In this document: positions 6,560-63,176 of the stretch, in pieces | Numbering within the stretch: the stretch's first letter is position 1 | Layout of the letters: the number at the start of each line of letters is the position of its first letter | From: Acidimicrobiia bacterium | GTDB lineage: Bacteria; Actinomycetota; Acidimicrobiia; Spongiisociales; UBA5794 | DNA length: 64,000 nt | Direction of reading: 5' to 3' | Assembly (NCBI GenBank): GCA_041581135.1 | Contig: JBFGCM010000003.1 | Span: 9,479 to 73,478, forward strand | Notes under the pieces: generated by a model | Database searches by the model: none | What the model saw: the letters and a program-made list of their open reading frames with translations, nothing else | Told to the model about the DNA's origin: nothing | Program-made: the position numbers and the translations under genes

Positions 6560-6583
6560 CTGCGATGCCCGGTGACGGGCGGC

Positions 6584-7507: not shown

Positions 7508-7611
7508 CCTGGCGTACTGACTAGCGCGGCTGCTTCTCGGCAGAACGGTGCGCGTTGGTCAGCCCATAACGGGCTACCTTGTAGCTACTCTCATCAGAGG
7601 AGCCAGGGGGA

Positions 7612-15615: not shown

Positions 15616-15652
15616 ACTCGAGGCCGCCGCCGACGCGTACACTTCCGGTCCC

Positions 15653-26665: not shown

Positions 26666-27384
26666 GCCGGGGGAGGGTCGACGAGGAACAGATCGAGACG
26701 TTGGCGCGCCGGCTGCCGGACAGCAGCGCCCGGCGAGCCATCATCGAGCTGTGCCATCCGCTGGCGCATCGGTTGGCACGTCGCTTCCAGGGCAGGGGCG
26801 AGTCCCACGACGACCTCGTGCAAGTCGCCGCGGTCGGTCTGATCAAGGCGGTGGACAACTTCGATCGGGGTCGGGGCGAATCGTTGGTGGGGTACGCGAT
26901 GGCAATGATGCTCGGTGAGCTCCGCCGCCACTTCCGTGATCGGTCTCGCATCGTGCGCATGCCGCGCGAGGTACAACAGCGAGCGGCCGAGGTGAACCGC
27001 GCAGTGGACCATCTCAGTCAGCGATTGGGCCGGTCGCCCACCATCGCCGAGATCGCGGCCGAGACCGACTTGCCGGTCGAGCGGGTGCTGGAGGCCCACG
27101 GTTCGGCTCGGTTGGCCATGCCCGCCTCGATCGAGGAGCTCGACATCGAGGGAACCGAGCTGAGCCGAGCCGAGCGCGACGAGTCGGCGTTCGTTGCGGA
27201 CTGGGTCAGCGTGGCTCCGGTGTTGGCGGATCTTCCGCCGCTGCAGCGGCGGATCCTCTACCTGCGGTTTCACCGCGGTCTGAGTCAGAGTCGGGTGGCG
27301 GTCGAGGTGGGCGTCTCGCAGGTGCACGTGTCACGTCTGCTCAACAAGGCGCTCGTCAGCCTGCGCCGTTCTTCGGGGCACTGA
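26662..27384 (+). CDS. SigB/SigF/SigG-subfamily RNA polymerase sigma factor
   Basis: Region 2 DDLVQVAAVGLIKAVDNFD, region 3 and region 4 (LPPLQRRILYLRFHRGLSQSRVAVEVGVSQVHVSRL). Its position after an rsbW-like gene fits. Confidence 0.88.
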   Translation: MSRGRVDEEQIETLARRLPDSSARRAIIELCHPLAHRLARRFQGRGESHDDLVQVAAVGLIKAVDNFDRGRGESLVGYAMAMMLGELRRHFRDRSRIVRMPREVQQRAAEVNRAVDHLSQRLGRSPTIAEIAAETDLPVERVLEAHGSARLAMPASIEELDIEGTELSRAERDESAFVADWVSVAPVLADLPPLQRRILYLRFHRGLSQSRVAVEVGVSQVHVSRLLNKALVSLRRSSGH

Positions 27385-29440: not shown

Positions 29441-29540
29441 CGCAGTGATGGTCGTGTCCGATCTGCCGGCGACGCCAAGAAAAAAAGTATGGAACCGCGT
29501 CAGGTGGGCAGACCAATAGTAGGAGCACAGTCGAGAAAGG

Positions 29541-30179
29541 ATGCAGCGGATGCTTTCACCCTGTGAAGCAGGACGTCGCTTCAGGCGCCACGTCCGATCA
29601 AGCGCGCTCGGCGCCATCGTGTTGGCCGCCAGCCTGCTGGTGACCCCGGCAGCTGTCGCCGATGAAGAGACGCACTGCGTGATCAATGTGCTGGATGTGC
29701 TCCTGGACGGGGAATTCGTGGTTTCGGACCCGGTGTGCTTCGGCACGTTCGCCGAGGCCATGGAATACCTCGGTGCCGGGGACCTCGGTATCCAGAGCGG
29801 ACCCGAGCTCTTCGCCGAGCAGCCCCGACTGGACGGTCGGTTCGCCCGTGGTACCGCCGTTTCCCGAAGCGACGCCGAGGCGACGCCGACGCCGCAAGGT
29901 GGCTACAGCAGCATCATCGGGATCCATTTCAAGGGGAGAGGCGGGTCCGGCAGCTCGGTATCGATCAGTGGTTCGAACTGCAGCGGTGGCTACTGGAACG
30001 CGTCCAGCTCCTGGCGAAACGTGATCTCGTCCAGCTACAACGGTTGTGTCCGGCTGGCGCACTACTCGCAACCCAACATCTCGGGCTCTCGGTACGACAC
30101 CTATGGAGTCGGCCAGACGGACTCGATCTACGGGTCGATGGACAACAACACCGAGTCCGTCAGGTACCTGTCGAGCTGA
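29541..30179 (+). CDS. hypothetical secreted protein (possible beta/gamma-crystallin-like C-terminal domain)
   Basis: Signal peptide ...ALGAIVLAASLLVTPAAVA. Cys pairs are present. The C-terminal SNCSGGYWNASSSWRNVISSSYNGC...MDNNTESVRYL loosely resembles I36/crystallin-type small secreted proteins, with low confidence. Confidence 0.5.
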   Translation: MQRMLSPCEAGRRFRRHVRSSALGAIVLAASLLVTPAAVADEETHCVINVLDVLLDGEFVVSDPVCFGTFAEAMEYLGAGDLGIQSGPELFAEQPRLDGRFARGTAVSRSDAEATPTPQGGYSSIIGIHFKGRGGSGSSVSISGSNCSGGYWNASSSWRNVISSSYNGCVRLAHYSQPNISGSRYDTYGVGQTDSIYGSMDNNTESVRYLSS

Positions 30180-31860: not shown

Positions 31861-31980
31861 ACCGCCCCTGAGCCGGCGGGGCAGCACCCGCACGATCGGC
31901 TCTCCGTCGGAAAGTACGGAACCCGACCCCGTGAGCGGACCAATGAAGCGTTGGAACCGTCTTCACGGAGGGACGCACAC

Positions 31981-34900
31981 GTGGGCAGTACACAGGACCG
32001 CAAGACAACGACGCTCGATCGCGTACTGGTGATGCTCGCCGCGCTGGCAGTGGTCATTCCACTGTTCCCGGCGGCGGGATCCGCGCAGGCCGCCGAGCCC
32101 GACATGTGGCTCGATCCCGGCCCGGGCGTGGTCGTCAACGAGACCGGCGAGCCCGGTCCGGATACCTACATCGTCCTCCATCAGGCGCCGCCGCTGGCCC
32201 TCTACGACGGATCGGTGGCCGGCCTCCTGGCCACTGCCACCGACGTGACGGGTGAGCCCCGGCTCGACCCGACGACGCCTGCCTCGGTCGCCTATCTCGA
32301 GTACCTCACCGCCGAGCAGGATGCGCTGCTCGCCAGGATCGAAGCGTCCATCGGCCACAGCGTGGATCCCACGTTCCGCTATGCCGCCGCACTGAACGGC
32401 TTCGCCGTGACGTTGACCGTCGACGAGGCGGCCACCGTGTCCTCGCTCACCGGTGTCGCCCGCGTCGAGCGCGACTCCGACCGGTTCCTCCTCACCGACA
32501 ACGGCCCGGCGTGGATCGGAGCCGACGCCATCCACGATGGTTCCGCCACTCCCGATGCGGTGGGCACCCTGGGAGAAGGTGTCGTGGTGGGGGTGATCGA
32601 CACCGGCATCAACGCCGACCATCCCAGCTTTGCCGCCATTGGCCCGGTGGACGGCTACGTGCACCTCAATCCGCGGGGGACCTTCTTCGGGGCGTGCGAT
32701 CCGGTGCTGGGAACGCCTTTCTGCAACAACAAGCTGGTCGGTGTCTACGACTTCACCGGGACGTCACCCGAGGACGACAACGGTCACGGCAGCCATACGG
32801 CCTCCACGTCGGCCGGCAACGTCGTCGATGTGGAGTTGGTGGCGCCCACCAACACGATCAACCGCCGCATTGCCGGCGTCGCCCCGCACGCCAACATCAT
32901 CTCCTACAAGGCGTGCGTCACCACACCGGTGCGAGGCACCTGCCCGATCTCGGCGCTCATCGCGTCCATCAACCAGGCGACGCTCGATCAGGTCGACGTG
33001 ATCAACTTCTCGATCGGTGGGAGCTCCTCGGACCCCTGGGCCGACCTCGACGCCCAGGCCTTCTTCTCGGCGAATGCGGCCGGCATCTTCGCCGCCACTT
33101 CGGCGGGCAACGACGGGCCCGGGGCCGCCACCCTCGGCTCACCTGCGGATGCTCCGTGGGTGACCTCGGTGGGTGCGTCCACCCACGACCGCCGTCTGCA
33201 GAACGGCCTCATCAGCATGGCCGGGGGCGACACGACCCCGCCCGCCGACCTCTTTGGCAAGTCGAACACCAGCGGATACGGACCGGCGCCGATCGTGTAC
33301 GCCGGCGATTACCCGTCCGCCCTCACCGCGACCCCTGAGCTCTGTGGCGCCGGCACGCTGGAAGCGGCGGTGAGCCCATGGCCACCCGGCACCTTCAACG
33401 GCGAGATCGTCGTGTGCGACCGTGGCGAGTTCGGCCGCGTCGCCAAAGCCCAGCACGCCATGGAGGCCGGCGCCGGCGGCTTCATCCTCGCCAACGACTT
33501 CGACAACGGCGACAGTGTCGTTGCCGACGGCTACGCCATCCCCGGGGTACACATCAGCCACGACGACGGTGTGATCCTCAAGGCGTGGCTGGCATCGGGG
33601 GCCGGACACACCGGCACCATTCGCGGCACCAACGCCGACGAGTCACCCGACTTCGCCGACTCGATGGCCGGCTTCAGCTCGCGAGGCCCCAACCCGGCAT
33701 TCGCCGGCCTGGTGAAGCCGGACGTGACGGCGCCCGGTGTCGACATCCTCGCCGCCTTCAACACGCCGGTGCTCACCACCGGGACCGACGAGTACAACAT
33801 CATCAGCGGCACCTCCATGTCGAGCCCGCACACCGCCGGTGCCGGAGCCCTCATCCGGGCCGCCCATCCGGGTTGGTCGCCGGACGAAGTGAAGTCGGCA
33901 CTCATGACCACCGCCTTCACCACCGTGCCCACAGACACCGAGACGCACGGCACCTTCAAGGAAGACGGAACCACCCCGACGGACGCCTTCGACCTCGGAG
34001 CCGGAAGGATCGACCTCCGCCAGGCGGCCCTCGCCGGGTTCGTGCTCGACGAGTCGGATGCCGACTACACCGCCGCGAATCCCGGTGACGGCGGCGACCC
34101 GACCTCGCTGAACATCGCCAGCTTCGGTACCAGCTCGTGCTCGGGCACGTGCTCGTGGACCCGGACGATCTCGAGCACGCTCGGTGCGGACGTCGGCTGG
34201 ACGTTCTCTTTCGATGCCCCGGCCGGTGTGGTCCTCAGCAGTGACCAGCCCACCATCACCCTGGCGGCCGGGGGCGAGGCGACATTCACCGTCACCGCCG
34301 ACGTGACCGCCGCGCCGACGAGCCAGTGGCTGTTCGGGACGGTGAGCATGACGCCCGACGCGGCGGGCGTGCCCGTCGCCAAGTTCCCGCTTGCACTCTT
34401 CGTCACCGGCACGTCCACCACGCCGCAGACTGCACTGCACATGCACGGCAACGTCCACGACGCGCCCTGCACCGGTGACGGGCGTGCCGACCTGATCGCA
34501 TGCGACGGGCCCTTCCTGTCCGTCGATCCCGACCTGGACATCGCGCCTGCGGCCAAGTTCGGTCCGGTGACGCCCGCCTTCAACGGCAGCAACTCCCGGA
34601 ACATCTACGACCCCAACTGGGTGTGGCACGTGGCGTCCCCTGCGGTGATCGAGGGTGAGATGACCGTGCGGATGTGGGCGTCATGTGGCGCCTGCGCCGC
34701 CGGCCTTCTGACCGCAGATTGGGACGTCAAGGTATTCGACACCGATGCGGCCGGAGCGACCCCGGTCTTCACCGAGCGGGTGGTTGACGCGACGCCAGTG
34801 GCGCCGAACACTCCGAGCTTGGTCGAGTTCAGCGTGCAGCTGCCTCGTATCGAGATCGCCTCGGCCATGGTGCTGCAGATCGACCCGCTCTACCTCGACA

Positions 34901-37900
34901 GCCAACAGAACACCACGATCTACTACGACTCCCAGCAGCCGTGTGGCGCCGGCACCGACCCGTGTGACTCCGTGGTGCTGATGCCCATCGTCTCCGGCGG
35001 CCCGGAGAACCGCGCCCCGGTGGCGAGTTCCGATTCGGTGGACGTCACCCAAGGTGGCGCCGTGACCTTCGACGTGCTCGCCAACGACTTCGATCCTGAC
35101 GGCGATGCCATCTCGATCATCGGCAACACGGATCCGGTGCACGGCGTCTTGGTCGACAACGGTGGAGGGAGCTTCAGCTACACCCACAACGGCGGGGACA
35201 GCCTCTCCGACAGCTTCACGTACACCATCTCCGATGGCCAGTTGGAGTCGACCGGCCACGTCACCATCACGGTGGTCGGCTCGACACTGACCGTCCGCAA
35301 CTCGTTCGTCTCCTCGGTGGGATGGGTGAAGCCGGGCGAGGGGTATCCCTTCCGAGTGATCGTGGAGAACCCGACCACCGACGATGCCACCGGTGTGGTC
35401 GTCACGGTGGAGGAGCCAGCCGGGACCGACTTCTTGTTCACCACCGAGAGCCAGGGCACCGCGGTCGTCAGCGGTGACATCACGTGGACGCTCGGTACGT
35501 TGCCTGCCGGCGCCACCGCAACCATGGTGGTGCAGGCCGAGGCTGACACGTTCGCCGACGACGCTGAGATCGTTTGGAAGAACATCTCGTCCACCGCCAC
35601 GCTCACCTACGACGGCGGGCCCGCCGGTCTCATGTCCATGGGCCACGGCCCGAAGGTGATTCCGGTTGACTCGACGTACGACTCGGCTCGCTACGGCGAC
35701 CGCCCGTTCCCGGTGGTGCCGGTGGACTGGTTCGACCGCAAGCATGATCCCGAGCACACCGCCGAGTTGCTCTCGGCCAAGATCAACTCCCCCGACGTGG
35801 TCGGCTCTACGTTCAACCTGTTCCAGGAGATGTCGCTGGGCCAGCTGTTCCCGATGGGCACCGTGCCCTCGGCGGGCATTGCCAGCGCCGACTTCTCCGG
35901 GCAGACGTTCGAGTTCACCGATCCCGAGCCGCAAGGGGCGTGCACCGGTACGACGTTCAAGGACACCGCAGGGACGCCGGTCTACGGCGAGCGGATCAAG
36001 GACGGCTGGTACCAGATGCCGGGCGACACCAACTACTACGGCGCCGATCGGTTCACCTTCGGCGGCTCCATCGGTGGCGCCCAACTGGGTGTGGGCCCGC
36101 TGCTCCAGATCGACGATGCGTGCGGCCCCACGGGCAAAGCTGTGTACGACGCGGCGCACATCGCCGACCCGGAGATCGACTACAACGACTTCGATACCGA
36201 CAAGGACGGCGTCGTGGACTTCTTCATGATGGTCTTCGTCGGTCTCGGCGGTAACGGCGACAGCCAGATCAATGGGACTCCGCCGTACGACAACATCTGG
36301 CCGCACAGCTCGAGCTTGGAGTTCTACTACACCGATCCCGACACCGGGCTGACTGGGTACATCTCCAATGATCAGCTGAAGAGCCTCAGCGGCGTGCCGC
36401 AATGCTGGACGTCGACGGCCTATCAGGTGTCCGATGACTGCGCCGCCAACGGCGGGACCGGCCTCGACTCGCTGCCGGTGTTCGTGCGGGTGGGCCCGTA
36501 CAACGTGAACCCGGAGGAGGCGATCGACCGGGCCAGCGTCATCAGCCACGAGTACGGCCACAGCCTCGGGCTGCCCGACTTCTACTCGCTGGGTAGCCGG
36601 GACACCTATGGCGACTGGAACCTGATGGCGACCGACAAGTCTCAGCACATGGACATCTTCTCCAAGCAGGAGCTGGGCTGGATCGTGCCCGAGGTGCTGC
36701 AGCCCGGAGACGACATCTCGGTGCTGGGGTGGCAGGACTCCAAGATCGACACCGGTGAGATCCACTGGCAGACGCCGGACGGCACGCCGTACACCCTGTC
36801 CGCGGCCAACGGCGACCAGAAGATCCACAACGCCGATGCATGGATGGTCAAGCTGCCGAGCCGCAAGGTGATCGACGAGGCCGTCGTCGCCAACGGTGCC
36901 AGCCTGGACCACGTGTGGTGGTCGGGCTCGGGCAACGACTTCGGATGCCCGCCGCTGGGGGGCCACAACTTCGACCTCTACCTGCCGCAGCTGGCCGACC
37001 TCGGACCCGGCGACACGGTGGAGGTGCAGTTCGCCACCAGCTTCGACATCGAGTGGGACTACGACTACGGCTTCGTGCTGTACTCCACCGACTTCGGTGA
37101 GTCGTACCAGTCGCTGGGGTCGCTCGAGGGCTACACCGAGGCCGTCTTGAACCCCAACGCCAACGCCTGCCAGACCCAGTACGGCAACGGAGTGACCGGT
37201 ACCACCGCATCCCACGATGCCGGTACGGCCGGCGTCGACCGCGGCTTGGGGAATTACCCGGCCAACACCGGGTTCTCCCTCGACCGCTACGACCTGAGTG
37301 CGGCCGTGGGCAGTGAGACCGTGCTGCGGTTCAGCTACGCCACGGACCCGGGCCTGGCCCGACCCGGCTGGTTCATCGACGATCTGAAGGTCATCGTCAA
37401 CGGCACGGACGTCATCTACGACTCGAACTTCGAGGACGGTGCCGGCGAAGCGGCAATCTTCAACGGTGGGTGCCAGGGCGAGCGCGGCCGGGTGGCGCAG
37501 ACCTGCACACCGGGCTGGAAGTACATCAATGCTTCCGCCGGCTCACCGGCCGACCACGCCTACTACCTCGAGATGCGAGACCGTTCCGGTTTCGACTTCA
37601 ACGGCAACGGCGAGAACGACCGTGGCGCCATCAGCTTCGATCCCGGCGTCCTGCTGGTGTACACGGACGAGAACCACGGCTACGGCAACGTCGGCACTGA
37701 CGACCCGCCGGCCCAGACGCCGGTCGACTCCAGGCCGGAGCCCACCGACAACACGCCGAATCTCAACGATGCGGCGTTCAAGGCGGGCGACGTGTACTTC
37801 GACGACGGCGCCTCGATGCTGGGCACGCAGGCCAACCTCGATGCCCCGGCGTGGACGGACAACTACGAGAACCCCGGCCCCGACGACCCGTGGGTGCACC

Positions 37901-46317: not shown

Positions 46318-49300
46318 CTACTCGTAGGCGAGCTCCACGATGCGGCGCTGCTCGCGCACGTGGGTCTTGGGATTGCCGGTTGCCGGGCTGGCGCTCTCCT
46401 TGCGATAGATCCCTCTGCTCGAACGACCGGCGGCCACGAACAGGTACCGCGACATGAACCGCCACGCTCCCATGTTGGCTGGCTCCTCCTGGACCCACAC
46501 CAGCTCGGCGTCGCCGTACGGGGCGAGCACCTCGTTCAGCTCCTCGGCGGGGAAGGGGTACAGCTCTTCGACCCGTACGAGCGCCACGTCGTCGGGCTGG
46601 GCCTTCAGCAAGTCGTAGTACACCTTCCCGGCACACAGCACCACACGGCGCGCACCTGAGGTCACCCGGGAGTCCCCGATGACGCGGCGAAACCCGCCAT
46701 CGCTGAACTCATCGATGGGGCTGTAGGACTCCTTGGTGCGCAGCAGCGATTTGGGCGTCATCACGATGAGCGGCTTCCTGACCGGGTGCAGTGCCTGGCG
46801 GCGGAACATGTGGAAGTGCTGGGCTGCCGTGCTGGGGACCACCACTCGCACGTTCTCCTCTGCCGCGTTGGTGAGGAACCGCTCGAGGCGGGCGCTGGAG
46901 TGTTCGGGCCCTTGTCCTTCGAATCCGTGGGGCAACAGCAGGGTGAGTGACGAAGTCTGGTTCCACTTGTCCTCGCCCGTCATCAGGAACTGATCGATCA
47001 CCACCTGGGCCCCGTTGACGAAGTCGCCGAACTGGGCCTCCCACATGACGAGTGCATCGGGCGCCTCGACCGAGTACCCGTACTCGAACCCCATCGCAGC
47101 GAACTCGCTGAGCAGGCTGTCGACGATACGAAGGGGCGCTTGCTCGGGATGGAGGTCGCGCAGCGGCACCCATTCCTCTTCGGTCTCGTAGTCGACGAGC
47201 GCCGCATGGCGGTGACTGAAGGTGCCGCGCTGGCTGTCCTCACCGGCCAGCCGCACCGGCCGTCCCTCCAACGACAGCGAGCCCCATGCCAGCGATTCGG
47301 CCAGGGCCCAGTCGGCCATCCCGGACTCGAAGAGCGCATGGCGGTCATCCAGGGTCTTCGCCAGCTTGGGATGCACCACGAAGCCTTGCGGCAAGGCATG
47401 GAGCTTCGCCTCGATGGCAGCCAGCTGATCACGGTCGACGGACGTGTCGATCGGAGTCGTCGGGTCGCCCTTCTCGGGCGGTACGAACGGCTCGGGCTCT
47501 TGATCCCTGGTGGCGTCGAACGCCGCATCGAGCTGCTGCTTGAAGGACGTGAGCACCTCCTCGGCTTGCTCGATTGTGATGTCTGCGCGGTTGACGAGGC
47601 GCTCCATGTAGAGCTTGCGCACAGAGCGGTGCTTGTCGATCGCCCGGTACATCCGGGGCTGGGTGTAGGACGGCTCGTCGCCCTCGTTGTGCCCCAACCG
47701 CCGGTAGCAGATCAGATCGATGACGATGTCCTTGTGGAACGCCTGCCGGAACGAAAACGCAAGCCGGGCCATGCGAACCACCGCTTCGGGATCGTCTGCG
47801 TTCACGTGGATGATGGGCGCTTGGACCGCCTTGGCGATGTCGGTGGCGTAGAAGCTCGACCGGGCTTCGGCGGCGCTCGTGGTGAAGCCCACCTGGTTGT
47901 TCACGACGATGTGCACGGTGCCGCCGGTGTAGTACCCGGGGAGCTGGCTCAGGTTGAGAGTTTCGGCAACCACGCCTTGTCCGGCGAAGGCCGCATCGCC
48001 GTGGATGAGGAGGGGCAGCACCAGGTCGTCCGCTCCGGCGCCGCGCCGCTCCTGCTTGGCGCGCACGATTCCTTCGAGCACGGGATCGACCCCCTCCAGG
48101 TGGCTCGGGTTCGCGGCCACTTGGATGTTGATCGTGTTGCCGGCCGGCGAGGTGTGGGATCCATGTGCGCCGAGGTGGTACTTGACGTCACCGGAGAACT
48201 CTCCCTCATGGTCTGCTTCACCTTCGAACTCGCGGAAGATCCTCTCGAGGCTCTTGCCGACGATGTTGGCGAGCACGTTGAGCCGGCCCCTGTGGGCCAT
48301 GCCGATCGTGGCCTCGTCCATGCCGGCATCGGCAGCGGCATTGAGCACGGCATCGATCAGCGGGATCAGCGACTCCGACCCTTCGAGGCTGAATCGCTTG
48401 GCACCGAGAAACTTGGTGTGGAGGAAGCGCTCGAAGGCCTCGGCGTCGTTGAGCTTGCCCAGAATGGCGAGCTTGTCGTCGACGCTCAGTGGCTCACTTG
48501 GGCGCTCCACGTGCGTCTGGATCCAGACCTTCTGGTCAGGCTCCTGGATGTGCATGTACTCGAGGCCGACGGTGCGGCAGTAGGCGTCGCGCAGCAGGCC
48601 GAGGATGTTGCCCAGCTTCATTCGGCTGTGGCCGCCAAGATCGCCGGTGGCGAACTCCCGCTCCAGGTCCCAGATGGTGAGGTTGTAGGTGAGCGGGTCC
48701 AGCTCGGGATGGATGATCGGCGGGTCCTGCCGCAGCGGATCGAGGTCGGCGATGAGGTGGCCGCGCACTCGGTACATGTTGATGAGTTGGAAGACCCGAG
48801 CCTGCTTCTCGGCCCACGGCCGGCTTCCCGGCGGCGGATTCGAGTCGGTGGCCCACCGTGCCGGCACGTACGGGACCGACATCGACGCGAACACGTCGTC
48901 GTAGAACCCATCGTCGCCGAGCAACAGGCGGTGGACTCGTTGGAGGAAGAGCCCGCTCTCGGCACCCTGGATGATGCGGTGGTCGTAGGTGCTGGTCATG
49001 GTCAGCGCGCGTCCCACCCCCGCCTGCGCCAACATGATCGGATCGGCGCCCTCGTACTCGGGTGGGTAGCCAATGGCGCCGACGCCGACGATGAGGCCCT
49101 GGTCCTTCATCAGCCGTGGCACCGATTGCACGGTGCCCACCGTGCCGGGGTTCGTGAGCGTGACCGTGGTCCCGGCGAAATCGTCCGGCGTGATCTCACC
49201 GGCGCGGACGCGGCGGATGACGTCCTCGTACGCCAGCCAGTAGCTGTGGAAGTCCATCTTGTCGACGCCCTTGATGTTCGGGACCAGCAAGGTGCGGGAG

Positions 49301-49917
49301 CCGTCCTTGCGCTCGAGATCGACCGCCAGCCCGAGGTTGATGGACTTGAACCTGACCAGGTGTGGCTCGCCGTCGATCTCGCGGAATGCGGCGTTCATGG
49401 CAGGGCGGTCCATGATGGCTCTCACCACCGCCCATCCGATGAGGTGCGTGAAGCTGACCTTGCCTCCCTCGACCAGGCGGGCGAGCTGGTTGTTCAGGAT
49501 CCTGCGGTTGACTTCGAGCAACTTGGCCGGGAAGGTCCGCACCGACGTGGCCGTGGGCAAGTCCCTGCTCTCGTCCATGCGTTCGGCGATGGTCGCCAGC
49601 GCGCCGCGCAGGGGGACGATTTCCTCGTCGCCGGAGGTGGCGGGCGTAGCTGATTTCTCCGGTGCGGTCTCCGCCGGAGTGGCCGCCGGTTGCGGTGCGT
49701 GCGACGGTGCTTCCGTCGCCGGAGCTGTGGTCGGTACCGGAGCGGTCTCGGTTGCAGGGAGGGTGGTCGGTACGTAGTCGGCGAAGTACTCCCTCCAGGC
49801 CTCGCTCACCGAATCGGGCGCTTCCAGGAAGCGCCGATACATCTGGTCCACCAGCCAGGTGTTCGGACCGAACTCGGCATGGTCGATGCTGGTGTCTGGC
49901 TCGCTCATTCCGTTCAT
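46318..49917 (-). CDS. kgd: multifunctional 2-oxoglutarate dehydrogenase E1 / decarboxylase with N-terminal E2-like succinyltransferase domain (actinobacterial Kgd type)
   Basis: About 1200 aa. Acyltransferase-like segment ending DHRIIQGAESGLFL, followed by the E1 ThDP domain (HRGRLNVLANIVGK, AAFAGQGVV). Start at MNGMSEPD (49917) or MSEPD (49908). Confidence 0.92.
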   Translation of the reverse strand: MNGMSEPDTSIDHAEFGPNTWLVDQMYRRFLEAPDSVSEAWREYFADYVPTTLPATETAPVPTTAPATEAPSHAPQPAATPAETAPEKSATPATSGDEEIVPLRGALATIAERMDESRDLPTATSVRTFPAKLLEVNRRILNNQLARLVEGGKVSFTHLIGWAVVRAIMDRPAMNAAFREIDGEPHLVRFKSINLGLAVDLERKDGSRTLLVPNIKGVDKMDFHSYWLAYEDVIRRVRAGEITPDDFAGTTVTLTNPGTVGTVQSVPRLMKDQGLIVGVGAIGYPPEYEGADPIMLAQAGVGRALTMTSTYDHRIIQGAESGLFLQRVHRLLLGDDGFYDDVFASMSVPYVPARWATDSNPPPGSRPWAEKQARVFQLINMYRVRGHLIADLDPLRQDPPIIHPELDPLTYNLTIWDLEREFATGDLGGHSRMKLGNILGLLRDAYCRTVGLEYMHIQEPDQKVWIQTHVERPSEPLSVDDKLAILGKLNDAEAFERFLHTKFLGAKRFSLEGSESLIPLIDAVLNAAADAGMDEATIGMAHRGRLNVLANIVGKSLERIFREFEGEADHEGEFSGDVKYHLGAHGSHTSPAGNTINIQVAANPSHLEGVDPVLEGIVRAKQERRGAGADDLVLPLLIHGDAAFAGQGVVAETLNLSQLPGYYTGGTVHIVVNNQVGFTTSAAEARSSFYATDIAKAVQAPIIHVNADDPEAVVRMARLAFSFRQAFHKDIVIDLICYRRLGHNEGDEPSYTQPRMYRAIDKHRSVRKLYMERLVNRADITIEQAEEVLTSFKQQLDAAFDATRDQEPEPFVPPEKGDPTTPIDTSVDRDQLAAIEAKLHALPQGFVVHPKLAKTLDDRHALFESGMADWALAESLAWGSLSLEGRPVRLAGEDSQRGTFSHRHAALVDYETEEEWVPLRDLHPEQAPLRIVDSLLSEFAAMGFEYGYSVEAPDALVMWEAQFGDFVNGAQVVIDQFLMTGEDKWNQTSSLTLLLPHGFEGQGPEHSSARLERFLTNAAEENVRVVVPSTAAQHFHMFRRQALHPVRKPLIVMTPKSLLRTKESYSPIDEFSDGGFRRVIGDSRVTSGARRVVLCAGKVYYDLLKAQPDDVALVRVEELYPFPAEELNEVLAPYGDAELVWVQEEPANMGAWRFMSRYLFVAAGRSSRGIYRKESASPATGNPKTHVREQRRIVELAYE

Positions 49918-50029: not shown

Positions 50030-53000
50030 ATGGGCAGAGCTCGCGAGGGGCAGTTGGCAGACAGACGACGGCGGTGGAAGAGCCGGCCCTTCCGGGCCGG
50101 ACTGGTTCGCTTCGCGGCATTTGCGATACCAATCGTGGCTGCCGTCGTGGCGGCGATCAGCGCTGCTCAGCTTCTTCCGGTTCCCGAAGATCCGCTCCAA
50201 GAGGTGCTGTGGTGGGTGGCGGTCATCTCGGTTTCATTGGTGGCGCTCTTCGTGTTCGACCGCATCGCTCGCAGGCTGCTGCCGCTGGCGGTGCTCCTCC
50301 GCTTGTCGCTGGTGTTCCCCGACCAGGCTCCGTCCCGCTACCGGCTGGCGCTGCGGTCCGGATCCACCCGCCTCCTCCGGGCGCAGGTGGAGTACGCCCG
50401 GTCGCACGGCATCGACGACAGCCCGACCCGATCTGCCGAGTTCATCCTCTCGCTGACGGCGGCGCTCACTTCGCACGACCGCATCACCCGGGGCCACGCC
50501 GAACGCACCCGGGCATACGCAGACCTCATCGGTGAAGAGCTGAAGCTCGACGATCGCGACCGCAATCTGCTGCGGTGGGCGGCACTCCTGCACGACATCG
50601 GCAAGCTGGCCGTGGCCGCCGAGATCCTCAACCGCAGTCGGCCGCTGAACGAGCCGGAGTGGGAAGCCATCAAGCACCACCCCATGGACGGCTACGACCT
50701 GGCGGCGCCACTCCACGACTTCCTCGGAGAGTGGGCGGAGTCGATCGCCATGCACCATGAGCGGTGGGACGGTTCCGGCTATCCCCGGGGCATCGCCGCG
50801 GATGACATCGCCCTCGGCGCCCGGATCGTTTCGGTGGCCGATGCCTACGACGCCATGACCGCGGCACGCTCCTACAGCCGGCCCGTGCCGGCCGCTGCCG
50901 CCCGCCGCGAGCTGGCCACCCAGGCCGGTAGCCAGTTCGACCCCGCCATCGTGCGTGCCTTCCTCAATGTCTCCATCGGCCGGCTCCGCTGGATCATGGG
51001 TCCGCTGGCCATCCTCGCCCAGCTGCCGTTCCTCGGCGGCTTGCAGCGTGTCGGTGAAGTCGCCGGCGTGGTGGCCGGCGGGGTAGCCGCCGTCGGGGCG
51101 CTCATGCTGGGGGGCGCCGTCACTCCGGACACGCCCCTCATCGAGCCCGGGCCTCGCATCGAAGTGCTCGCCGCCGCAACGGAGGTGGTGGTGGAACCCG
51201 ACGTCGCCGACCTCGAGTCCGTCGAGATCACCTCGGAGCCGCTCTTCGGTACGGCGATGATCCGTCCCGACGGCTCCGTCACGTACGCGCCGAATCCGGG
51301 ATACGAGGGGTCCGACACGTTCACGATCATGACGTGCACCACATCGGGTGCATGCATCGAACAAGACGTGGTCGTCACCGTGACCGCTCCACCGTTGGCA
51401 GCTGGAGAGGAGCCGCTGGACCCGGGACCCACCACCACGATCCCACCGCCGCCGCCCACGACTGCTGCCACGACGACCACGACGAGCGCGCCGACCGGCG
51501 GTGCGACGACGACTACGACGGCGGCGACGACCTCCACGACGGCGGCCGCGGCCACGACGACGACGACCACCGCCGGGGCCACGACAACGACCACGATGGC
51601 ACCCGCGACGACGACGTCCACCACGAGTACCACCACCACCACCACCACCACCACGAGCACGACGATGCCCCCGGGCCCGGCGGTCGTCGCCGATGCGTTC
51701 GTCACCAACGAGGACACGGCGGTGACCGCGTCGGTGACGGCCAACGACCCGGGCCCCGGCCTCGATCTGGTATCGCTGCGCATCGTCACCGGACCCACCT
51801 CGGGAACCGCAGCGCTCGCCGGAGGCGGATCGGTGACGTACACCCCGACGCCGAACTTCTTCGGTGCGGACTCCTTCGTGTACGAGATCTGCGACACGAG
51901 CGGTCTGTGCGCCACTGCCATGGTCGCCGTGACGGTGGTCGCAGTGAACGATGCTCCGGTCGCGGTCGACGACACGGCGTCGACCAACGAGGACGAGGCC
52001 GTGGTGGTCAATGTGTGGATCAACGACAGCGACGTCGAGAGCGACATCGACCCCGCCAGCGTGTCGGTGGACACCCCACCGACGTCGGGCTCGGCTGTGC
52101 CTGACGGCCTGGGCGGTGTGATCTACACCCCGGCGCTCAACACGAACGGCATCGACACGTTCACCTACCAGATCTGTGACTTGGCCGGGGCCTGTTCTAC
52201 GGCGACCGTGACGGTCACGGTGGCCGCCGTGAACGATGCCCCTGACGCCGTGGACGACACCTCTGCCACCGACCCGGGCGTGCCCGTGACCATCGATGTG
52301 CTGGCGAACGACTCCGATGCCGAATCAGACCCGATCGCCGTCACCTCGTGGGATGCCACGTCGACCTTCGGCGGAACGATCACGTGCGGGCCGTCCACCT
52401 GCACGTACACACCTCCCGTCGGCAGCTGGGCCACCACCGATACGTTCACCTACACGATCGCTGACCCCGACGGTGCGGCCGACACCGCCACGGTGAGCGT
52501 CGACCCGAACTTCGTCGTGGCCGAACTGGGCGTGCAGCCGGCGGGACTGGGTGACCAGGTATCGCAGCCGATCCTGCCCTTGACGTTCGATGCGACGCCG
52601 GGCAACGCCACGCTGCCGAACTACGACGCCGACCGCAACCCCGATCCGGGCCTCACCATTCTCATCGGGCCGCCGGGGATCGCGGCACAGCTGGCGGAGA
52701 CCGACCCCGCCAAGTTCCAGCTGTGGGCGCACGCTGCCACGTCCGACGTCGAGCTCGACGGTGCCGTGACGTTCACCATCTGGAGTGCCATGGATGGGCT
52801 GGCCGGAGGACTCACCGGACGGCTTCGGGTCTTCCTGCTCGATTGCCCCGCTTCGACCGTCGACGGCACCGACTGCACGGAGCTGGACCACAAGACCATC
52901 ACGAACATTCCGTGGCCGGCGGCGTGGGAAGAGGTGACCATGAACTTCGGCCCCATCCTGCACACGGTCCCGGCGGGCAATCTGTTGGCCATCAAGGTGG

Positions 53001-53095
53001 TGGTGCCGCCGACGTCGAGCGCCGACATGTGGTTCGCCTTCGGGGCCACGGGCTTCGAGAGCACACTGACGGTTCGAGCCAACTCACCGCTGTAG
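50030..53095 (+). CDS. membrane HD-GYP domain protein fused to Thr-rich linker, cadherin-like modules and an unassigned C-terminal beta-rich domain
   Basis: Two N-terminal TMs. HD-GYP core (HAERT...LLHDIGK...HHERWDGSGYP, about 50447-50960). Two further hydrophobic segments. Poly-Thr/Ala region (about 51425-51673). VNDAP...DD...V..ND.D modules. Confidence 0.85.
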   Translation: MGRAREGQLADRRRRWKSRPFRAGLVRFAAFAIPIVAAVVAAISAAQLLPVPEDPLQEVLWWVAVISVSLVALFVFDRIARRLLPLAVLLRLSLVFPDQAPSRYRLALRSGSTRLLRAQVEYARSHGIDDSPTRSAEFILSLTAALTSHDRITRGHAERTRAYADLIGEELKLDDRDRNLLRWAALLHDIGKLAVAAEILNRSRPLNEPEWEAIKHHPMDGYDLAAPLHDFLGEWAESIAMHHERWDGSGYPRGIAADDIALGARIVSVADAYDAMTAARSYSRPVPAAAARRELATQAGSQFDPAIVRAFLNVSIGRLRWIMGPLAILAQLPFLGGLQRVGEVAGVVAGGVAAVGALMLGGAVTPDTPLIEPGPRIEVLAAATEVVVEPDVADLESVEITSEPLFGTAMIRPDGSVTYAPNPGYEGSDTFTIMTCTTSGACIEQDVVVTVTAPPLAAGEEPLDPGPTTTIPPPPPTTAATTTTTSAPTGGATTTTTAATTSTTAAAATTTTTTAGATTTTTMAPATTTSTTSTTTTTTTTTSTTMPPGPAVVADAFVTNEDTAVTASVTANDPGPGLDLVSLRIVTGPTSGTAALAGGGSVTYTPTPNFFGADSFVYEICDTSGLCATAMVAVTVVAVNDAPVAVDDTASTNEDEAVVVNVWINDSDVESDIDPASVSVDTPPTSGSAVPDGLGGVIYTPALNTNGIDTFTYQICDLAGACSTATVTVTVAAVNDAPDAVDDTSATDPGVPVTIDVLANDSDAESDPIAVTSWDATSTFGGTITCGPSTCTYTPPVGSWATTDTFTYTIADPDGAADTATVSVDPNFVVAELGVQPAGLGDQVSQPILPLTFDATPGNATLPNYDADRNPDPGLTILIGPPGIAAQLAETDPAKFQLWAHAATSDVELDGAVTFTIWSAMDGLAGGLTGRLRVFLLDCPASTVDGTDCTELDHKTITNIPWPAAWEEVTMNFGPILHTVPAGNLLAIKVVVPPTSSADMWFAFGATGFESTLTVRANSPL

Positions 53096-59622: not shown

Positions 59623-61161
59623 TCACACGTTCGAGTCGGGGAAAGATGTCTTGCGCCGCTCGATGTACTCGCGCAGCTCTACGTCCTTGGCCTCGTCGAG
59701 TGGTGGTGGCTCGTACTCGGCCAGCAGGGTCTTGCACCGTTCACTCGCCCTGGCGATCGAGTCCCTGGCGCCTTCGTCTTCCCACTGTTCGAAGCTGTTG
59801 TTGTCGGCCATCCCCGAGCGCCAGAAGGCTGTCTCGAAGTTCGCGATCGTGTGTTCGTTGCCGAGGAAGTGCTGACCCGGCCCGCTCTCCAAGATCGCAG
59901 TCAAGGCCTGGCCGTTCTCGGAGATGTCCACCCCTGCCACCAGCTTGGCCGCCATGGAGGCCTGGTCGGCGTCGAGGATGAACTTCTCGTAGCCCATGGT
60001 GAGCCCGCCTTCCAGCCAGCCGGCGGTGTGCAGCACGAAGTTCACGCCGGCGTGGAGCGTGGGCATGAAGGTGGCCATGCTCTCGTAGGCGGCCTGGGCG
60101 TCGGGCACCTTGGATGCCGTCAGGTTGCCGCCACTGCGGAACGGCACACCGATGCGGCGTGCGAGTTGGGCGACGGTGTAGAGCATGAGCGCCGGCTCCG
60201 GGGTTCCGAAGGTCGGGGCACCGCTCTGCATGGACATCGACGAGGCGAACGATCCGAAGATGACGGGTGCACCCGGGCGTACCAGCTGGGTGAAAGCCAT
60301 GCCCGCCAGCGCTTCGGCGAGGGTCTGGGTGGCGGCGCCGGCCACGGTGACCGGGGCCATGGCGCCGGCCAAGATGAATGGGGTCACCAGCACGGCCTGG
60401 TTGGCCTCGGCGTATGCCTTGGCCGAGCCGAGCATGGCGAAGTCCCACGACAGCGGTGAGTTGGCGTTGGCCAGGCCCAGGATGACGGTGTGTTCCTCCA
60501 TGAACTCGGCCCCGAAGAGGATGCGCGCCATCTCGACGCTGTCCCGTGCCCGGTCCGGGTGGGTGACCGAGCCCATGAACGGCTTGTCGGAGTACTTCAT
60601 GTGGGCGTAGACCATGTCGAAGTGCCGCTTGTTCACCGGCAGGTCCACGGGCTCGCACACGGTGCCGCCGGAGTGATGCAGTCCCGGCGACAGGTAGGCC
60701 AGCTTCACGAAGTTCTCGAAGTCGGTCATCGTGGCGTACCGGCGGCCTCCGTCCAGGTCGCGCACGAAGGGCGAGCCGTAGGCAGGCACCAGCACCGTGT
60801 GCGGGTCGCCGATGGTGACGCTCTTGTCAGGGTTGCGGGCGTGCTGCACCCACGTCGCCGGAGCCGACGCCTGAACGATCTGACGGCACATGCCGCGGGG
60901 GAACCGCACCCGGGTCCCATCCACGTCGGCGCCGGCGGCGGCGAAGATCGAGAGGGCTTCGTCGTAGCCGACGATCTCCATGCCGACTTCTTCGAGGATG
61001 GTGTCGGCGTTGTGCTCCAGGATCTCCAGGCCCTCGTCGCTGAGCACCTCGTACGGGGCAAGCCGTCGAGTGAGAAAGCTCTCTCGGTCCATCACGGCCC
61101 CAGCCCGGGCCGCTTGGCGCGCCGCACGGCCTCCGGATCTGCGCCGACGGGTATCGCTCAT
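59623..61161 (-). CDS. MttB-superfamily (trimethylamine methyltransferase family, non-pyrrolysine) methyltransferase
   Basis: The ATG overlaps the upstream stop (ATGA, 61158-61161). 512 aa collinear with the MttB family (LSDEGLEILEHNADTILEEVG..., FGTPEPAL...). There is no in-frame TAG. Confidence 0.85.
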   Translation of the reverse strand: MSDTRRRRSGGRAARQAARAGAVMDRESFLTRRLAPYEVLSDEGLEILEHNADTILEEVGMEIVGYDEALSIFAAAGADVDGTRVRFPRGMCRQIVQASAPATWVQHARNPDKSVTIGDPHTVLVPAYGSPFVRDLDGGRRYATMTDFENFVKLAYLSPGLHHSGGTVCEPVDLPVNKRHFDMVYAHMKYSDKPFMGSVTHPDRARDSVEMARILFGAEFMEEHTVILGLANANSPLSWDFAMLGSAKAYAEANQAVLVTPFILAGAMAPVTVAGAATQTLAEALAGMAFTQLVRPGAPVIFGSFASSMSMQSGAPTFGTPEPALMLYTVAQLARRIGVPFRSGGNLTASKVPDAQAAYESMATFMPTLHAGVNFVLHTAGWLEGGLTMGYEKFILDADQASMAAKLVAGVDISENGQALTAILESGPGQHFLGNEHTIANFETAFWRSGMADNNSFEQWEDEGARDSIARASERCKTLLAEYEPPPLDEAKDVELREYIERRKTSFPDSNV

Positions 61162-63176
61162 TCCGGGCCCTCCTGGTTGTGGTCGGGGCGGCGACGTCGC
61201 CGGCGCCGTTCGGGTGTGGCTGGTTCGGTGCGAGCCGGCAGCGTGACGACACGGGCCAGCTCGGGGTAGTCGGCGGTGGCGTGCGGCAGGGCCATGGCGT
61301 CCACGAAGTGTTCCTGGAACCGGGGTTCCACGGCGGTCTCGATCTTCTCCACCTTGCGTACGAGTCCCTCGACCTCGGCACGGGATGCGCCGCTGAGCAG
61401 CGCCAGCACGGCCCCGACACCGGCGGCGTTCCCGGCCGCCGAAACCCGCTCCAGGTCGCAGTCGGGTATCAGGCCGAGCACCATCGCGTAGGTGGTGTCG
61501 ATGTGGCTGCCGAAGGCGCCGGCGAGGCGGATCTGGTCCACCCGGTCGACGCCGAGGTGGTCCATCAGCAGCTTGGCGCCGGCATACAGGGCGGCCTTGG
61601 CCAGCTGAATGGCGCGCACGTCGTTCTGGGTCACCAGGAGCCGGGGCGCGGCGTCGCGCAGCACGTAGGAGGCGGTCCGTCCATCGGCGATGACCCGGGG
61701 GTTGCGGTCGGCGGCGGCCGGGTCGATGGTGCCGTCGGATCGAATCACGCCGGCCAGGAACAGCTCGGCGATCACTTCGATGATGCCCGAGCCGCACACG
61801 CCGATGATGTCGATCTTCTCGGCGGCGAACTCGGGATCGTCGGACCACAGGTCGGAGCCGATCACCTGGTAGCGGGGCTCGAGCGTGTCTGCGTCGATGC
61901 GGACGCGCTCGATGGCACCCACCGCAGCGCGGGTCCCCGAGCTGATCTGAGCTCCCTCGAAGGCCGGTCCCGTGGGGCTCGAGGCGGCGAGCAGGCGATC
62001 GCGATTGCCGAGAACGATCTCGGCGTTGGTGCCCACGTCGACGAGCAGCTGGGTCTCGGCCGATCGGTGGGGAGCCTCTGACAGCATGGCTCCTGCCGTG
62101 TCAGCGCCCACGTGACCGGCGATGCAGGGCAGCACATACACACGTGCGCCCGGGTGGCAGGCCAGCCCCAGCTCGCGCGCCGGCAGACGCACGGCGGCGT
62201 CGGTGGCCAGCGCGAACGGTGCGCCGCCCAGCTCGGTGGGGTCCAGGCCCAGGAACAGGTGGTGCATGATCGGATTGCCGACGAACGTCAGTTCCAGGAC
62301 GTCGCGACGATCGATTCCCGCCTCGGCGGCCAGCTCGCCGATGAGTCCGTCGAGGGCGTCCCGGACCGCAGCGGTGAGCTCGGCGTCGCCGCCGGGGTTC
62401 ATCATCACGTAGGAGACGCGGCTCATCAGGTCCTCGCCGAAGCGAATCTGGGGGTTCATCACCCCCGCCGACGCCCGGACTTCGCCGGTGAAGAGGTCGC
62501 ACAAGTGTCCGGCGATGGTGGTGGAGCCGATGTCGACGGCGATGCCGAACGCGGTGTCGCGGAACCCGGGCCAGACCGCCGTGATCGTGGCGCCGTCGTG
62601 GACCGCGACGGTCACGGTCCACTGTCCCCGGCGCAGTGCCGGCTGTACCTCGCGGAGCACCGTGGAGTCGATGGTGAGGCCCGTCAGCTCCCACTGATCG
62701 TGCAGCGCCGCCAGGAGCCGCTGGGCGTCTCCGGTGGGGTCGTGCATGTCGGGCTCGGCGACCTCCACGTAGTACAGCCGCACCACAGGGTCCACGTCGA
62801 TCGCATGAACCTCGGCTCGCTTCCGCACCACCTGGCGGTGGACCTGGCTCTCGGCGGGCACGTCGATGACGACGTCACCGAGGACCGCGGCAGCGCATCC
62901 GAGGCGGCGGCCATCTCCCAGACCGCGTTTGCCCCGGTAGGTCTCCTCAGTCTCCGTCCAGGCGCCGAGGTGGTCGGGGGTGGAGCTGATGCCGTGCTTG
63001 GCGAACTCTCCGATGCTCTGGGTGACCTGGCACCGGCCGCAGATTCCCCTTCCGCCGCACACCGAGTCGAGGTCGACGGCGAGGGTGCGAGCCGCCTCCA
63101 GCACGGTGCTTCCGGCCGCCATCCGGCCGCGCCGACCCGAGGGGGTGAAGACGACGAGGGGGTCCTCGGCGGTCAT
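61158..63176 (-). CDS. corrinoid reductive activase (RACo-like: N-terminal 2Fe-2S ferredoxin + ASKHA/DUF4445 ATPase)
   Basis: Plant-type ferredoxin motif CGGRGICGRCQV and later GRCQVTQ...C. The long ASKHA-like body has DIGSTTIAGHL and VDVGTNAEIVLG. Confidence 0.85.
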   Translation of the reverse strand: MTAEDPLVVFTPSGRRGRMAAGSTVLEAARTLAVDLDSVCGGRGICGRCQVTQSIGEFAKHGISSTPDHLGAWTETEETYRGKRGLGDGRRLGCAAAVLGDVVIDVPAESQVHRQVVRKRAEVHAIDVDPVVRLYYVEVAEPDMHDPTGDAQRLLAALHDQWELTGLTIDSTVLREVQPALRRGQWTVTVAVHDGATITAVWPGFRDTAFGIAVDIGSTTIAGHLCDLFTGEVRASAGVMNPQIRFGEDLMSRVSYVMMNPGGDAELTAAVRDALDGLIGELAAEAGIDRRDVLELTFVGNPIMHHLFLGLDPTELGGAPFALATDAAVRLPARELGLACHPGARVYVLPCIAGHVGADTAGAMLSEAPHRSAETQLLVDVGTNAEIVLGNRDRLLAASSPTGPAFEGAQISSGTRAAVGAIERVRIDADTLEPRYQVIGSDLWSDDPEFAAEKIDIIGVCGSGIIEVIAELFLAGVIRSDGTIDPAAADRNPRVIADGRTASYVLRDAAPRLLVTQNDVRAIQLAKAALYAGAKLLMDHLGVDRVDQIRLAGAFGSHIDTTYAMVLGLIPDCDLERVSAAGNAAGVGAVLALLSGASRAEVEGLVRKVEKIETAVEPRFQEHFVDAMALPHATADYPELARVVTLPARTEPATPERRRRRRRPDHNQEGPE

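Follow-up and report, generated by a model that had tools for sequence, protein, structure and literature searches.

A candidate receptor-type HD-GYP phosphodiesterase with a C-terminal adhesin-like region in an Acidimicrobiia bacterium

How contact with a surface leads to a change in cyclic dimeric guanosine monophosphate (c-di-GMP) is a long-standing question, and the known routes, through pili, flagellar motors, and the Wsp and Lap systems, are indirect. In the actinobacterial receptor Ser/Thr kinases PknB and PknD and in the RsgI-type anti-sigma factors, a cytoplasmic output domain is linked by one transmembrane (TM) helix to a variable C-terminal extracellular domain (PASTA, NHL beta-propeller, CBM), and these families have multiple paralogues with swapped ectodomains. 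Characterised c-di-GMP enzymes, by comparison, carry their sensory domains upstream of the catalytic domain (PMC12448109; PMC8846402). DvhD's HD-GYP domain has SQ and MN in place of HD and HH, is inactive in vitro and is the one such domain known to serve as a pure c-di-GMP receptor (PMC13090378). Here we describe a gene at positions 50030 to 53095 of a 64,000-nucleotide stretch (referred to as the window) of contig JBFGCM010000003.1 from an Acidimicrobiia bacterium (GCA_041581135.1), the product of which joins an HD-GYP domain to a C-terminal array of cadherin-like repeats. Both the HD-GYP domain and the Big_9/tandem-95 modules are ordinary; the arrangement is unusual, as the sole candidate input lies downstream of the catalytic domain and is predicted to be extracellular. 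With moderate confidence, the protein is read as a receptor-type cyclic-dinucleotide phosphodiesterase, in which the sensing or adhesive domain would be C-terminal and extracellular and the enzyme would respond to the ectodomain.

An HD-GYP core followed by adhesin-like modules

The gene is one uninterrupted open reading frame (ORF) with an ATG start, comprising 1021 codons and a stop codon in the ORF listing, and lies in a window with a G+C content of 65-70% throughout. An independent assembly, GCA_041611855.1, has a contig that matches the window at 99.8% identity over 22.5 kb and carries the ORF unbroken. The sole difference within the gene is one threonine codon in the threonine-rich run, and versions of 1020 and 1021 residues, from two NCBI assemblies, are found in the protein collection. 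This length difference, at approximately positions 51640-51660 of the window (residues ~536-545), reflects either polymorphism in the repeat length of the mucin-like linker or slippage during assembly. A promoter and terminator scan found neither.

Pfam HD_5 (PF13487) matches residues 145-307 over profile positions 6-170 of 170 (E 4.5e-34; 118.1 bits against a cutoff of 27.2), and the domain carries the motifs HDIGK (residues 188-192) and HHERWDGSGYP (residues 242-252), the latter in the HHExxDGxGYP form. Among solved structures in the PDB, the best sequence matches are V-cGAP3 (5z7c, 1e-36, residues 148-307), PmGH (4mcw, 2e-30) and PA4781 (4r8z, 4e-24), all three of which are active phosphodiesterases. 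The AlphaFold model is best superposed on PA4781 (36% identity, TMt 0.74), and DvhD's HD-GYP domain is also among the structural matches. The metal-ligand set H156, H188/D189, H217, H242/H243 and D271 is aligned with the ligands of PmGH and PA4781. In 97 homologues, H188, D189, K192, H217, H242, H243, E244, G250, Y251, P252 and D271 are invariant and H156 is conserved in at least 90%; HD is present in all 246 family proteins and HH...GYP in 239 of them, as counted with a strict regular expression. The near-invariance of the ligand and GYP positions points to selection for catalysis. With every sequence feature expected of the HD-GYP family in place, the domain looks active, that is, catalytically intact and of the active type.

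The metal site is likely to be binuclear, as in PA4781. PmGH binds its third iron through a glutamate (E185) four residues before the first histidine, and the aligned position in this protein is Ile152 ('DRITRGH' here, 'DPETQNH' in PmGH). The protein thus lacks the residue that marks the trinuclear-iron PmGH type, which makes a binuclear site more likely. The NosR-family response-regulator phosphodiesterase model (NF053512) reached 110 bits against a cutoff of 400, on the HD-GYP part alone and with the REC domain absent, and PADLOC returned only trivial HD matches to Cas3.

After the last hydrophobic segment the protein consists largely of modules familiar from adhesins. Pfam Big_9, Cadherin_5 and Cadherin_4 match four stretches (E 3e-56; Big_9 188.7 bits against a cutoff of 23.6), the NCBIfam tandem-95 model NF012211 also matches four stretches (179.2 bits against a cutoff of 90), and the BapA/Bap/LapF model NF045619 stays below its cutoff (50.1 bits against 180). 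All four repeats can be aligned with one another, the first being without the N-terminal NDAP..DD part. The threonine-rich run occupies residues 466-548, and its 83 residues include 47 threonines, 14 alanines, 10 prolines and 5 serines. Four Big_9 modules of a large S8/M6 protease encoded in the same window are 41-44% identical to the repeats of the HD-GYP protein and have no cysteine pairs.

The C-terminal domain (residues 826-1021) is modelled by AlphaFold as a jelly-roll beta-sandwich with high confidence (predicted local distance difference test, pLDDT, 89.9; predicted TM-score, pTM, 0.88). By Foldseek, it comes closest among solved structures to the non-catalytic domain at the C-terminus of cocaine esterase (CocE), PepX and alpha-amino-acid ester hydrolases (E 2e-8, probability 1.0, TMq 0.62-0.67), with a weaker likeness to TNF-like jelly rolls. 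The domain is kept in approximately 35 of 120 homologues, mostly at the extreme C-terminus, and D, G, W, C, C and G do not vary in an alignment of 24 of these domains. No Pfam family, including PepX_C (PF08530), matched the window's own domain at a reporting limit of E 10, at which the HMMER filters drop most weak matches. PepX_C gave weak matches in 4 of the 24 homologous domains (best E ~1e-3), which falls short of membership by sequence. A profile search with the domain returned six fragments and no new domain context. By analogy with its fold class, the terminal jelly roll may well bind a ligand.

These results agree with the earlier note, a first reading of the letters of the window, on all parts of the protein. 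The two N-terminal TM helices, the HD-GYP core with both of its motifs and the two later hydrophobic segments lie where the note had placed them; the cadherin-like modules and the threonine run that it described are recovered by profile and by composition; the resemblance of the modules to those of the giant protease is borne out by their identity; and the final beta-rich domain, for which it offered no assignment, is conserved and can now be modelled with the fold of the PepX/CocE C-terminal domains.

The protein belongs to a large family. A HMMER search with residues 1-405 against 1.84 billion cluster representatives (clusters at 50% identity) gave at least 150 clusters, all with E<1e-97, nearly all covering approximately residues 12-365 and ranging from 344 to 2051 residues in length among the matches listed. 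At E<=1e-30 there were 7254 matches, a figure that also takes in good generic HD-GYP proteins. Generic HD-GYP proteins of other phyla match the query only over approximately residues 137-314, so residues 1-135 and 315-365 are specific to the family. More than 115 of the best 120 homologues carry both HD_5 and Big_9, and they come from many independent samples and from contigs of up to 1-3.8 Mb. In 82 of 126 new representatives, Big_9 or jelly-roll sequences were not detectable. Ten of the longer ones among these were scanned and contained fn3 (1-8 copies), Big_13/Ig-like domains, LTD, pentapeptide repeats or unassigned sequence, and two of the ten had Big_9 after all by more sensitive Pfam profiles. 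Other members carry PKD, FG-GAP/VCBS, NHL and He_PIG modules. The family is thus a constant core of two TM helices, HD-GYP domain and TM helix, combined with interchangeable modules, most of which are typical of extracellular proteins. A profile search with the N-terminal module returned short fragments only, in which the module was paired with no output domain other than HD-GYP.

The closest database proteins are from Acidimicrobiia metagenome-assembled genomes (MAGs), and the source names across the family are Acidimicrobiia, Acidimicrobiales, Ilumatobacteraceae and Actinomycetes MAGs together with one Dormibacteraeota fragment. Database labels are inconsistent ('tandem-95 repeat protein', 'Ig-like domain-containing protein', 'HD domain-containing protein'). 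A single-protein scan of GTDB genomes, dominated by the generic pattern VADAYDAM, gave 79 generic HD-GYP loci and one family member (locus L006). Tandem paralogues are found in two unrelated genomes, at positions 5642-10475 of locus L002 (756 and 824 residues) and at approximately positions 6001-10500 of locus L006 (ORFs of 597 and 541 residues). Recent duplication of such tandem members fits a diversifying receptor or adhesin family. The earlier note had allowed that this could prove to be a known, common family with an established topology. The family is indeed common; a search of full-text literature found no description of the architecture and no experimental topology, although subscription journals were thinly covered and an earlier mention in a domain census is possible. 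The architecture is therefore common in metagenomic data yet uncharacterised.

Membrane segments and topology

Four segments of the protein are hydrophobic, at residues 21-46, 58-76, 319-338 and 345-365. TM1, TM2 and TM3, which are the first, second and fourth of these, score as membrane-spanning on the Kyte-Doolittle scale, whereas segment 319-338 does not (mean 1.26, by hand calculation). The segments were also scored in 103 homologues by their best 19-residue window on the scale of Hessa et al. (2005). The medians were +1.0 for TM1, +0.7 for TM2, +2.3 for TM3 and +9.7 for segment 319-338, and the sum for the last never fell below +3. Segment 319-338, rich in proline and glycine, is well conserved in the family (G324 97%, P325 99%, P333 94%, Q331 65%) and is flanked by arginines on both sides (R318/R320 and R340/R343). 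An AlphaFold model of residues 1-405, made from a 97-sequence alignment (mean pLDDT 79.9), has one helix at residues 305-331 that extends the HD-GYP core, a short helix at 334-337 and a helix at 345-360 (pLDDT 51-61). The stretch 316-344 is probably membrane-associated and unlikely to span. TM3 is free of charge throughout the family, and across homologues the hydrophobic peak after the HD-GYP domain keeps a constant distance (+94 to +111 residues) to the GYP motif. At 10-11 residues, the TM1-TM2 loop is below the size of a sensor domain, and the region at residues 77-144 is without a Pfam match.

Composition separates the two sides of TM3 clearly. Lysine plus arginine (K+R) number nine in the N-terminal tail, none in loop 47-57, seven in residues 77-110 and three in residues 310-344; the 35 residues after TM3 (366-400) hold one K+R and nine aspartate plus glutamate (D+E). 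Taken as a whole, the protein after residue 365 has 1.5% K+R and 11.9% D+E, compared with 13.2% K+R in the cytoplasmic part. All ten cysteines lie after residue 365 and form five close pairs (436/442, 621/627, 716/722, 786/791, 939/949), whereas the cytoplasmic part has no cysteine. Similarly, in 118 homologues the median K+R is 3.5% in the ectodomain and 13.6% in the cytoplasmic part, the number of cysteines is even in 95%, and 89% of the cysteines are in close pairs. Family-wide, K+R drops to approximately 2% directly after TM3, with R340 and R343 preceding it. The same K+R and cysteine pattern was seen in 121 representatives picked solely by their N-terminal core. For calibration, proteins of the window with signal peptides have 3.0-5.7% K+R and cytoplasmic enzymes with reliable starts have approximately 8-10%.

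The HD-GYP domain must face the cytoplasm and the C-terminal region is export-like, so the number of spans after the HD-GYP domain should be odd. It is highly probable that this is a three-pass membrane protein with the N-terminus inside and the C-terminus outside, in which TM3 is the only span after the HD-GYP domain. This topology is based on the positive-inside pattern, the depletion of K+R, the paired cysteines, the module types and the AlphaFold helix, while the verdict of hydropathy depends on the scale. Cleavage by signal peptidase behind TM3 is unlikely, as positions 363/364 are mostly valine in the family and a conserved AxA motif is missing. The segments and domains are summarised in Table 1.

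Table 1. Features of the HD-GYP gene and its predicted product, with positions in the window.
Feature	Residues	Position	Strand	Basis
Whole gene		50030..53095	+	ORF listing; intact in an independent 99.8%-identical assembly
Predicted cytoplasmic N-terminal tail, Arg-rich, family motif RWxxR	1-20	50030..50089	+	R15, W16 and R19 conserved; residues 1-24 have 9 K+R and 2 D+E
TM1, near-invariant R27, invariant P34	21-46	50090..50167	+	Kyte-Doolittle peak 2.43; AlphaFold helix 20-48, pLDDT >90
Predicted short outside loop, LPxP motif	47-57	50168..50200	+	0 K+R, 2 D+E
TM2, conserved WW61-62	58-76	50201..50257	+	Kyte-Doolittle peak 2.28; W61 88% and W62 95% conserved; AlphaFold helix 55-91
Family-specific, predicted cytoplasmic juxtamembrane region (DRxARRLLPL...FPDxAPSR)	77-144	50258..50461	+	near-invariant R81, L84, P85, F96, P97, D98, P101, R103
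HD-GYP catalytic domain	145-315	50462..50974	+	Pfam HD_5; PDB sequence matches; AlphaFold/structure match
Hydrophobic juxtamembrane segment (GRLRWxxGPLAxLAQxPF...R.G+)	316-344	50975..51061	+	conservation, Arg flanks, Hessa, AlphaFold
TM3, uncharged anchor rich in Ala, Val and Gly, with conserved G362 and P366 at its end	345-365	51062..51124	+	Kyte-Doolittle 1.95; AlphaFold helix 345-360
Big_9/cadherin-like repeat 1, N-terminally truncated, Cys436/Cys442	384-465	51179..51424	+	aligns with repeats 2-4
Thr/Ala/Pro/Ser-rich mucin-like linker	466-547	51425..51670	+	composition
Big_9/cadherin-like (tandem-95) repeats 2-4, NDAP..DD..NDSD acidic motifs, Cys 621/627, 716/722, 786/791	548-825	51671..52504	+	Pfam, NCBIfam, repeat alignment
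C-terminal jelly-roll beta-sandwich, conserved DxDxD..PGL loop, Cys939/Cys949	826-1021	52505..53092	+	alignment, AlphaFold, Foldseek

Candidate mode of action and alternatives

In the predicted topology, the TM hairpin and TM3 keep the intact HD-GYP domain close to the membrane on its cytoplasmic side. The hairpin (invariant P34, near-invariant R27, conserved W61 and W62) would anchor the enzyme there together with the conserved helix that follows TM2, and both may also form a partner surface for helix 305-338. In a monoderm host, the threonine-rich stalk and the Ig-like repeats could extend the terminal jelly roll across the wall and past it. If the ectodomain is the input, its binding of a ligand, adhesion that depends on Ca2+, clustering or tension would alter the activity or the oligomeric state of the HD-GYP domain. 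TM3 and the conserved juxtamembrane helix (residues 305-338), the latter continuous with the last helix of the catalytic domain in the model, would relay the signal, and the outcome would be a lowered level of second messenger in response to cell-surface contact. TM3 is poorly conserved, which favours oligomerisation or pulling over a precise rotation of the helix. The receptor-like logic rests on the constant core with swapped ectodomains, the tandem paralogues, the conserved family-specific residues 1-135 and 315-365, and the lack of an operon partner. Four neighbourhoods were read and all differ, with no conserved operon partner among them, so there is no neighbour to supply a separate sensor. 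A narrower version, that of an adhesion receptor in the strict sense, is possible but doubtful. In it, a Ca2+-dependent cadherin-like, fn3 or lectin-like ectodomain would bind a neighbouring cell, a polymer or a surface, and clustering or tension transmitted by one TM helix and the juxtamembrane helix would switch the HD-GYP domain.

Several observations weigh against a c-di-GMP phosphodiesterase under ectodomain control. With regard to the substrate, which is most likely c-di-GMP, the closest solved sequence match (V-cGAP3) is an enzyme specific for 3'3'-cyclic GMP-AMP (3'3'-cGAMP), and sequence similarity cannot separate the two dinucleotides. A motif scan for GGDEF/EAL in the window and the related loci L002-L006 (~140 kb in total, too small a sample) found no cyclase, neither the window nor ~80 kb of related loci showed a known c-di-GMP effector, and Rfam gave nothing over the whole window and hence no c-di-GMP riboswitch. 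Signalling by c-di-GMP in this organism is thus an assumption. With regard to the membrane, TM3 of this protein is marginally hydrophobic (Hessa +2.0), and the Eisenberg mean hydrophobicity of residues 321-338 (0.71) equals that of TM3 (0.72), on which account some predictors could call four helices. This equality means that hydropathy alone cannot decide the number of spans; the compartment signatures do. Finally, beyond G362 and P366 the sequence of TM3 is poorly conserved and its model is of low confidence (pLDDT 51-61), features that fit a passive tether as well as a signalling helix.

Such a tether is the strongest of the competing explanations, and we regard it as rather unlikely. The ectodomain would only anchor or position the protein, for instance in the wall, where cells touch one another or on a substrate, and a constitutive HD-GYP domain would act as a local sink for cyclic dinucleotides with no signal from outside to inside. 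Apart from the properties of TM3 just described, the adhesin-type ectodomain modules (Big_9, fn3, LTD) are consistent with this, as is the presence of the same Big_9 modules on a secreted protease of the window. However, residues 77-144 and 316-344 are among the best-conserved parts of the family, which a mere tether would not need, and the swapping of ectodomains on a constant core together with tandem paralogues is the pattern of a sensor family.

Less probable again, and in our judgement improbable, is a signal that runs from inside to outside by the logic of LapD and DvhD. The HD-GYP domain would be mainly a nucleotide sensor, and binding would alter the adhesive ectodomain in its conformation, its oligomerisation or its shedding, with the level of messenger thus setting stickiness. 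HD-GYP domains can be c-di-GMP-binding transmembrane switches that control adhesins, as DvhD demonstrates (PMC13090378); the DvhD domain is among the structural matches, and here an adhesin-like ectodomain is fused directly to a nucleotide-binding domain. DvhD, however, is an inactive protein without the HD and HH metal ligands (PMC13090378), whereas the ligands are kept in this protein, which makes the DvhD logic a less likely model for it. Ligand and GYP positions are invariant or nearly so in the 97 aligned sequences and the motifs occur in nearly all of the 246 family proteins. In addition, conformational signalling from inside to outside would be poorly served by one TM helix of low conservation.

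The number of spans was left between two alternatives in the earlier note. The one in which segments 319-338 and 345-365 both span would leave the Big_9 repeats, the threonine-rich linker and the jelly roll in the cytoplasm, and we consider it very improbable. It draws on the Eisenberg value of residues 321-338 and on the Kyte-Doolittle mean of the segment, which is not negligible. Against it, the region after residue 365 is acidic, depleted of K+R and paired in its cysteines, here and in more than 230 homologues, in the manner of the secreted proteins of the window, and its modules (Big_9, fn3, PKD, LTD) are of extracellular types. The conserved arginines of the six-residue loop 339-344 would have to sit outside, the segment holds the conserved G324, P325, Q331 and P333 with a Hessa sum of +7.5 or more, and the HD-GYP helix runs on through residue 331 in the AlphaFold model. 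Charge, paired cysteines, the low scores of segment 319-338 on two scales and the course of this helix all favour the note's other alternative, a receptor-like protein with one span after the HD-GYP domain and a C-terminal ectodomain. An artefact, by which a frameshift (the event that the note had allowed for near 51.0 kb) or a chimeric contig joined a membrane HD-GYP gene to a secreted repeat-protein gene at this place, deserves practically no credence and is rejected. The ORF is continuous and whole in the second, 99.8%-identical assembly, top homologues from many samples (more than 115 of 120, some on contigs >1 Mb) share the fusion, and the distance from TM3 to the GYP motif is fixed in the family. 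The only weak hint in its favour, that some database entries are short N-terminal fragments, is explained by short metagenomic contigs.

The receptor-type reading matters because an apparently active HD-GYP domain occurs in cis with a large surface adhesin-like array, and because the core recurs with many modules in an abundant, barely studied class of actinobacteria. If the ectodomain controls the enzyme, the protein would be a minimal one-protein system for adhesion-coupled second-messenger signalling and would open a first way into the biology of cyclic dinucleotides in Acidimicrobiia. If adhesion in the strict sense is the input, attachment would be converted into a drop in c-di-GMP or another cyclic dinucleotide within one polypeptide, and this one-component surface sensor or mechanosensor would have expanded into paralogues of differing specificity in Acidimicrobiia. 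If the ectodomain does not control the enzyme, the family is still an unannotated architecture. The protein does not amount to a new principle of biochemistry. What it provides, in a neglected lineage, is a testable candidate for a direct link between surface binding and cyclic-dinucleotide turnover.

Gene neighbourhood and comparison with known systems

A gene for an OdhA-type fused 2-oxoglutarate dehydrogenase (E1 and an E2-like domain) lies at positions 46318-49917 on the minus strand, divergent from the HD-GYP gene and 112 bp upstream of it. The longest ORF call of this gene, with 1237 residues and its start at 50031, runs into the start of the HD-GYP gene and probably extends too far; in the public annotation the protein has 1199 residues. 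In locus L002, a pyruvate dehydrogenase E1 gene (2789-5497) lies directly upstream of the two tandem family paralogues. A 2-oxoacid dehydrogenase E1 beside a family gene in two loci is the only recurring neighbour, and is possibly a coincidence.

The window is rich in genes for surface or secreted repeat proteins. The protease mentioned above (31951-39966, plus strand, 2671 residues) combines Peptidase_S8 with a PA insert, DUF11, Peptidase_M6/InhA-like MAM, PKD and four Big_9 modules behind a signal-peptide-like N-terminus, and unites two protease classes in one chain. The protein of 1140 residues at 7612-11034 (plus strand), which combines a CarboxypepD_reg/SdrD_B-like domain with FG-GAP/VCBS repeats and bears a clear Sec signal peptide, is a surface or secreted protein. 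A 651-residue protein at 11724-13679 (minus strand) has four DUF7467 repeats and a Tat-like N-terminus (RREALKRGAVVAGAAA), and the adjoining putative ORF at 13717-16167 (minus strand, 816 residues) has no Pfam match at E<=1e-5. A partner-switching-type signalling protein of 801 residues is encoded at 27356-29761 (minus strand), with HATPase_c_2 (anti-sigma-kinase-like), GAF and SpoIIE/PP2C phosphatase domains. At 59623-63176 (minus strand), a gene of the MTTB family (trimethylamine methyltransferase-like) precedes one for RACo-type corrinoid activation, and the public annotation places MTHFR nearby; these genes form a methylated-amine or glycine-betaine demethylation cluster.

Compared with described HD-GYP proteins, this protein has the same catalytic domain as PA4781 and RpfG (REC-HD-GYP) and PmGH (GAF-HD-GYP), sharing the H...HD...H...HH...D ligands and GYP. 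Those proteins are soluble and their regulatory domain is N-terminal and cytoplasmic, whereas here the domain is predicted to be held by a TM hairpin on its N-terminal side and a TM helix on its C-terminal side, with a candidate input that is C-terminal and extracellular. V-cGAP3 of Vibrio cholerae (5z7c), the best solved sequence match, is also soluble; it has a second, N-terminal pseudo-HD-GYP module, a weak match to the single domain found here, and no membrane or extracellular parts, and its substrate preference is not transferable. LapD (GGDEF-EAL) and DvhD (dCache-PAS-HD-GYP) are, like this protein, membrane proteins in which a cytoplasmic cyclic-dinucleotide-binding domain is coupled to adhesins outside, and DvhD uses the HD-GYP fold. 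Their domains are degenerate and inactive, however, and they have an N-terminal periplasmic domain between two TM helices and work with a separate protease and adhesin (PMC13090378). In the protein described here the catalytic residues are intact, the adhesin-like part is in cis at the C-terminus and the TM1-TM2 loop has approximately ten residues, which places it outside the LapD/DvhD type.

The tandem-95/Big_9 adhesins of the BapA/LapF type share the repeats and the acidic NDxD/DxD motifs, but the classical members are secreted or wall-anchored giants with tens of repeats and, unlike this protein, have no enzymatic cytoplasmic domain. The CocE/NonD/PepX hydrolases (PepX_C; galactose-binding-domain-like) share the fold of residues 826-1021 at just 9-14% identity. 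In these hydrolases the PepX_C domain is an intracellular accessory to an alpha/beta-hydrolase, whereas here it would be a terminal extracellular module with a predicted disulfide and a DxDxD loop. PknB, PknD and RsgI have a kinase or anti-sigma output, are single-pass, have no N-terminal hairpin and have no sequence relationship to this protein, yet it is the order of their parts that the present architecture resembles.

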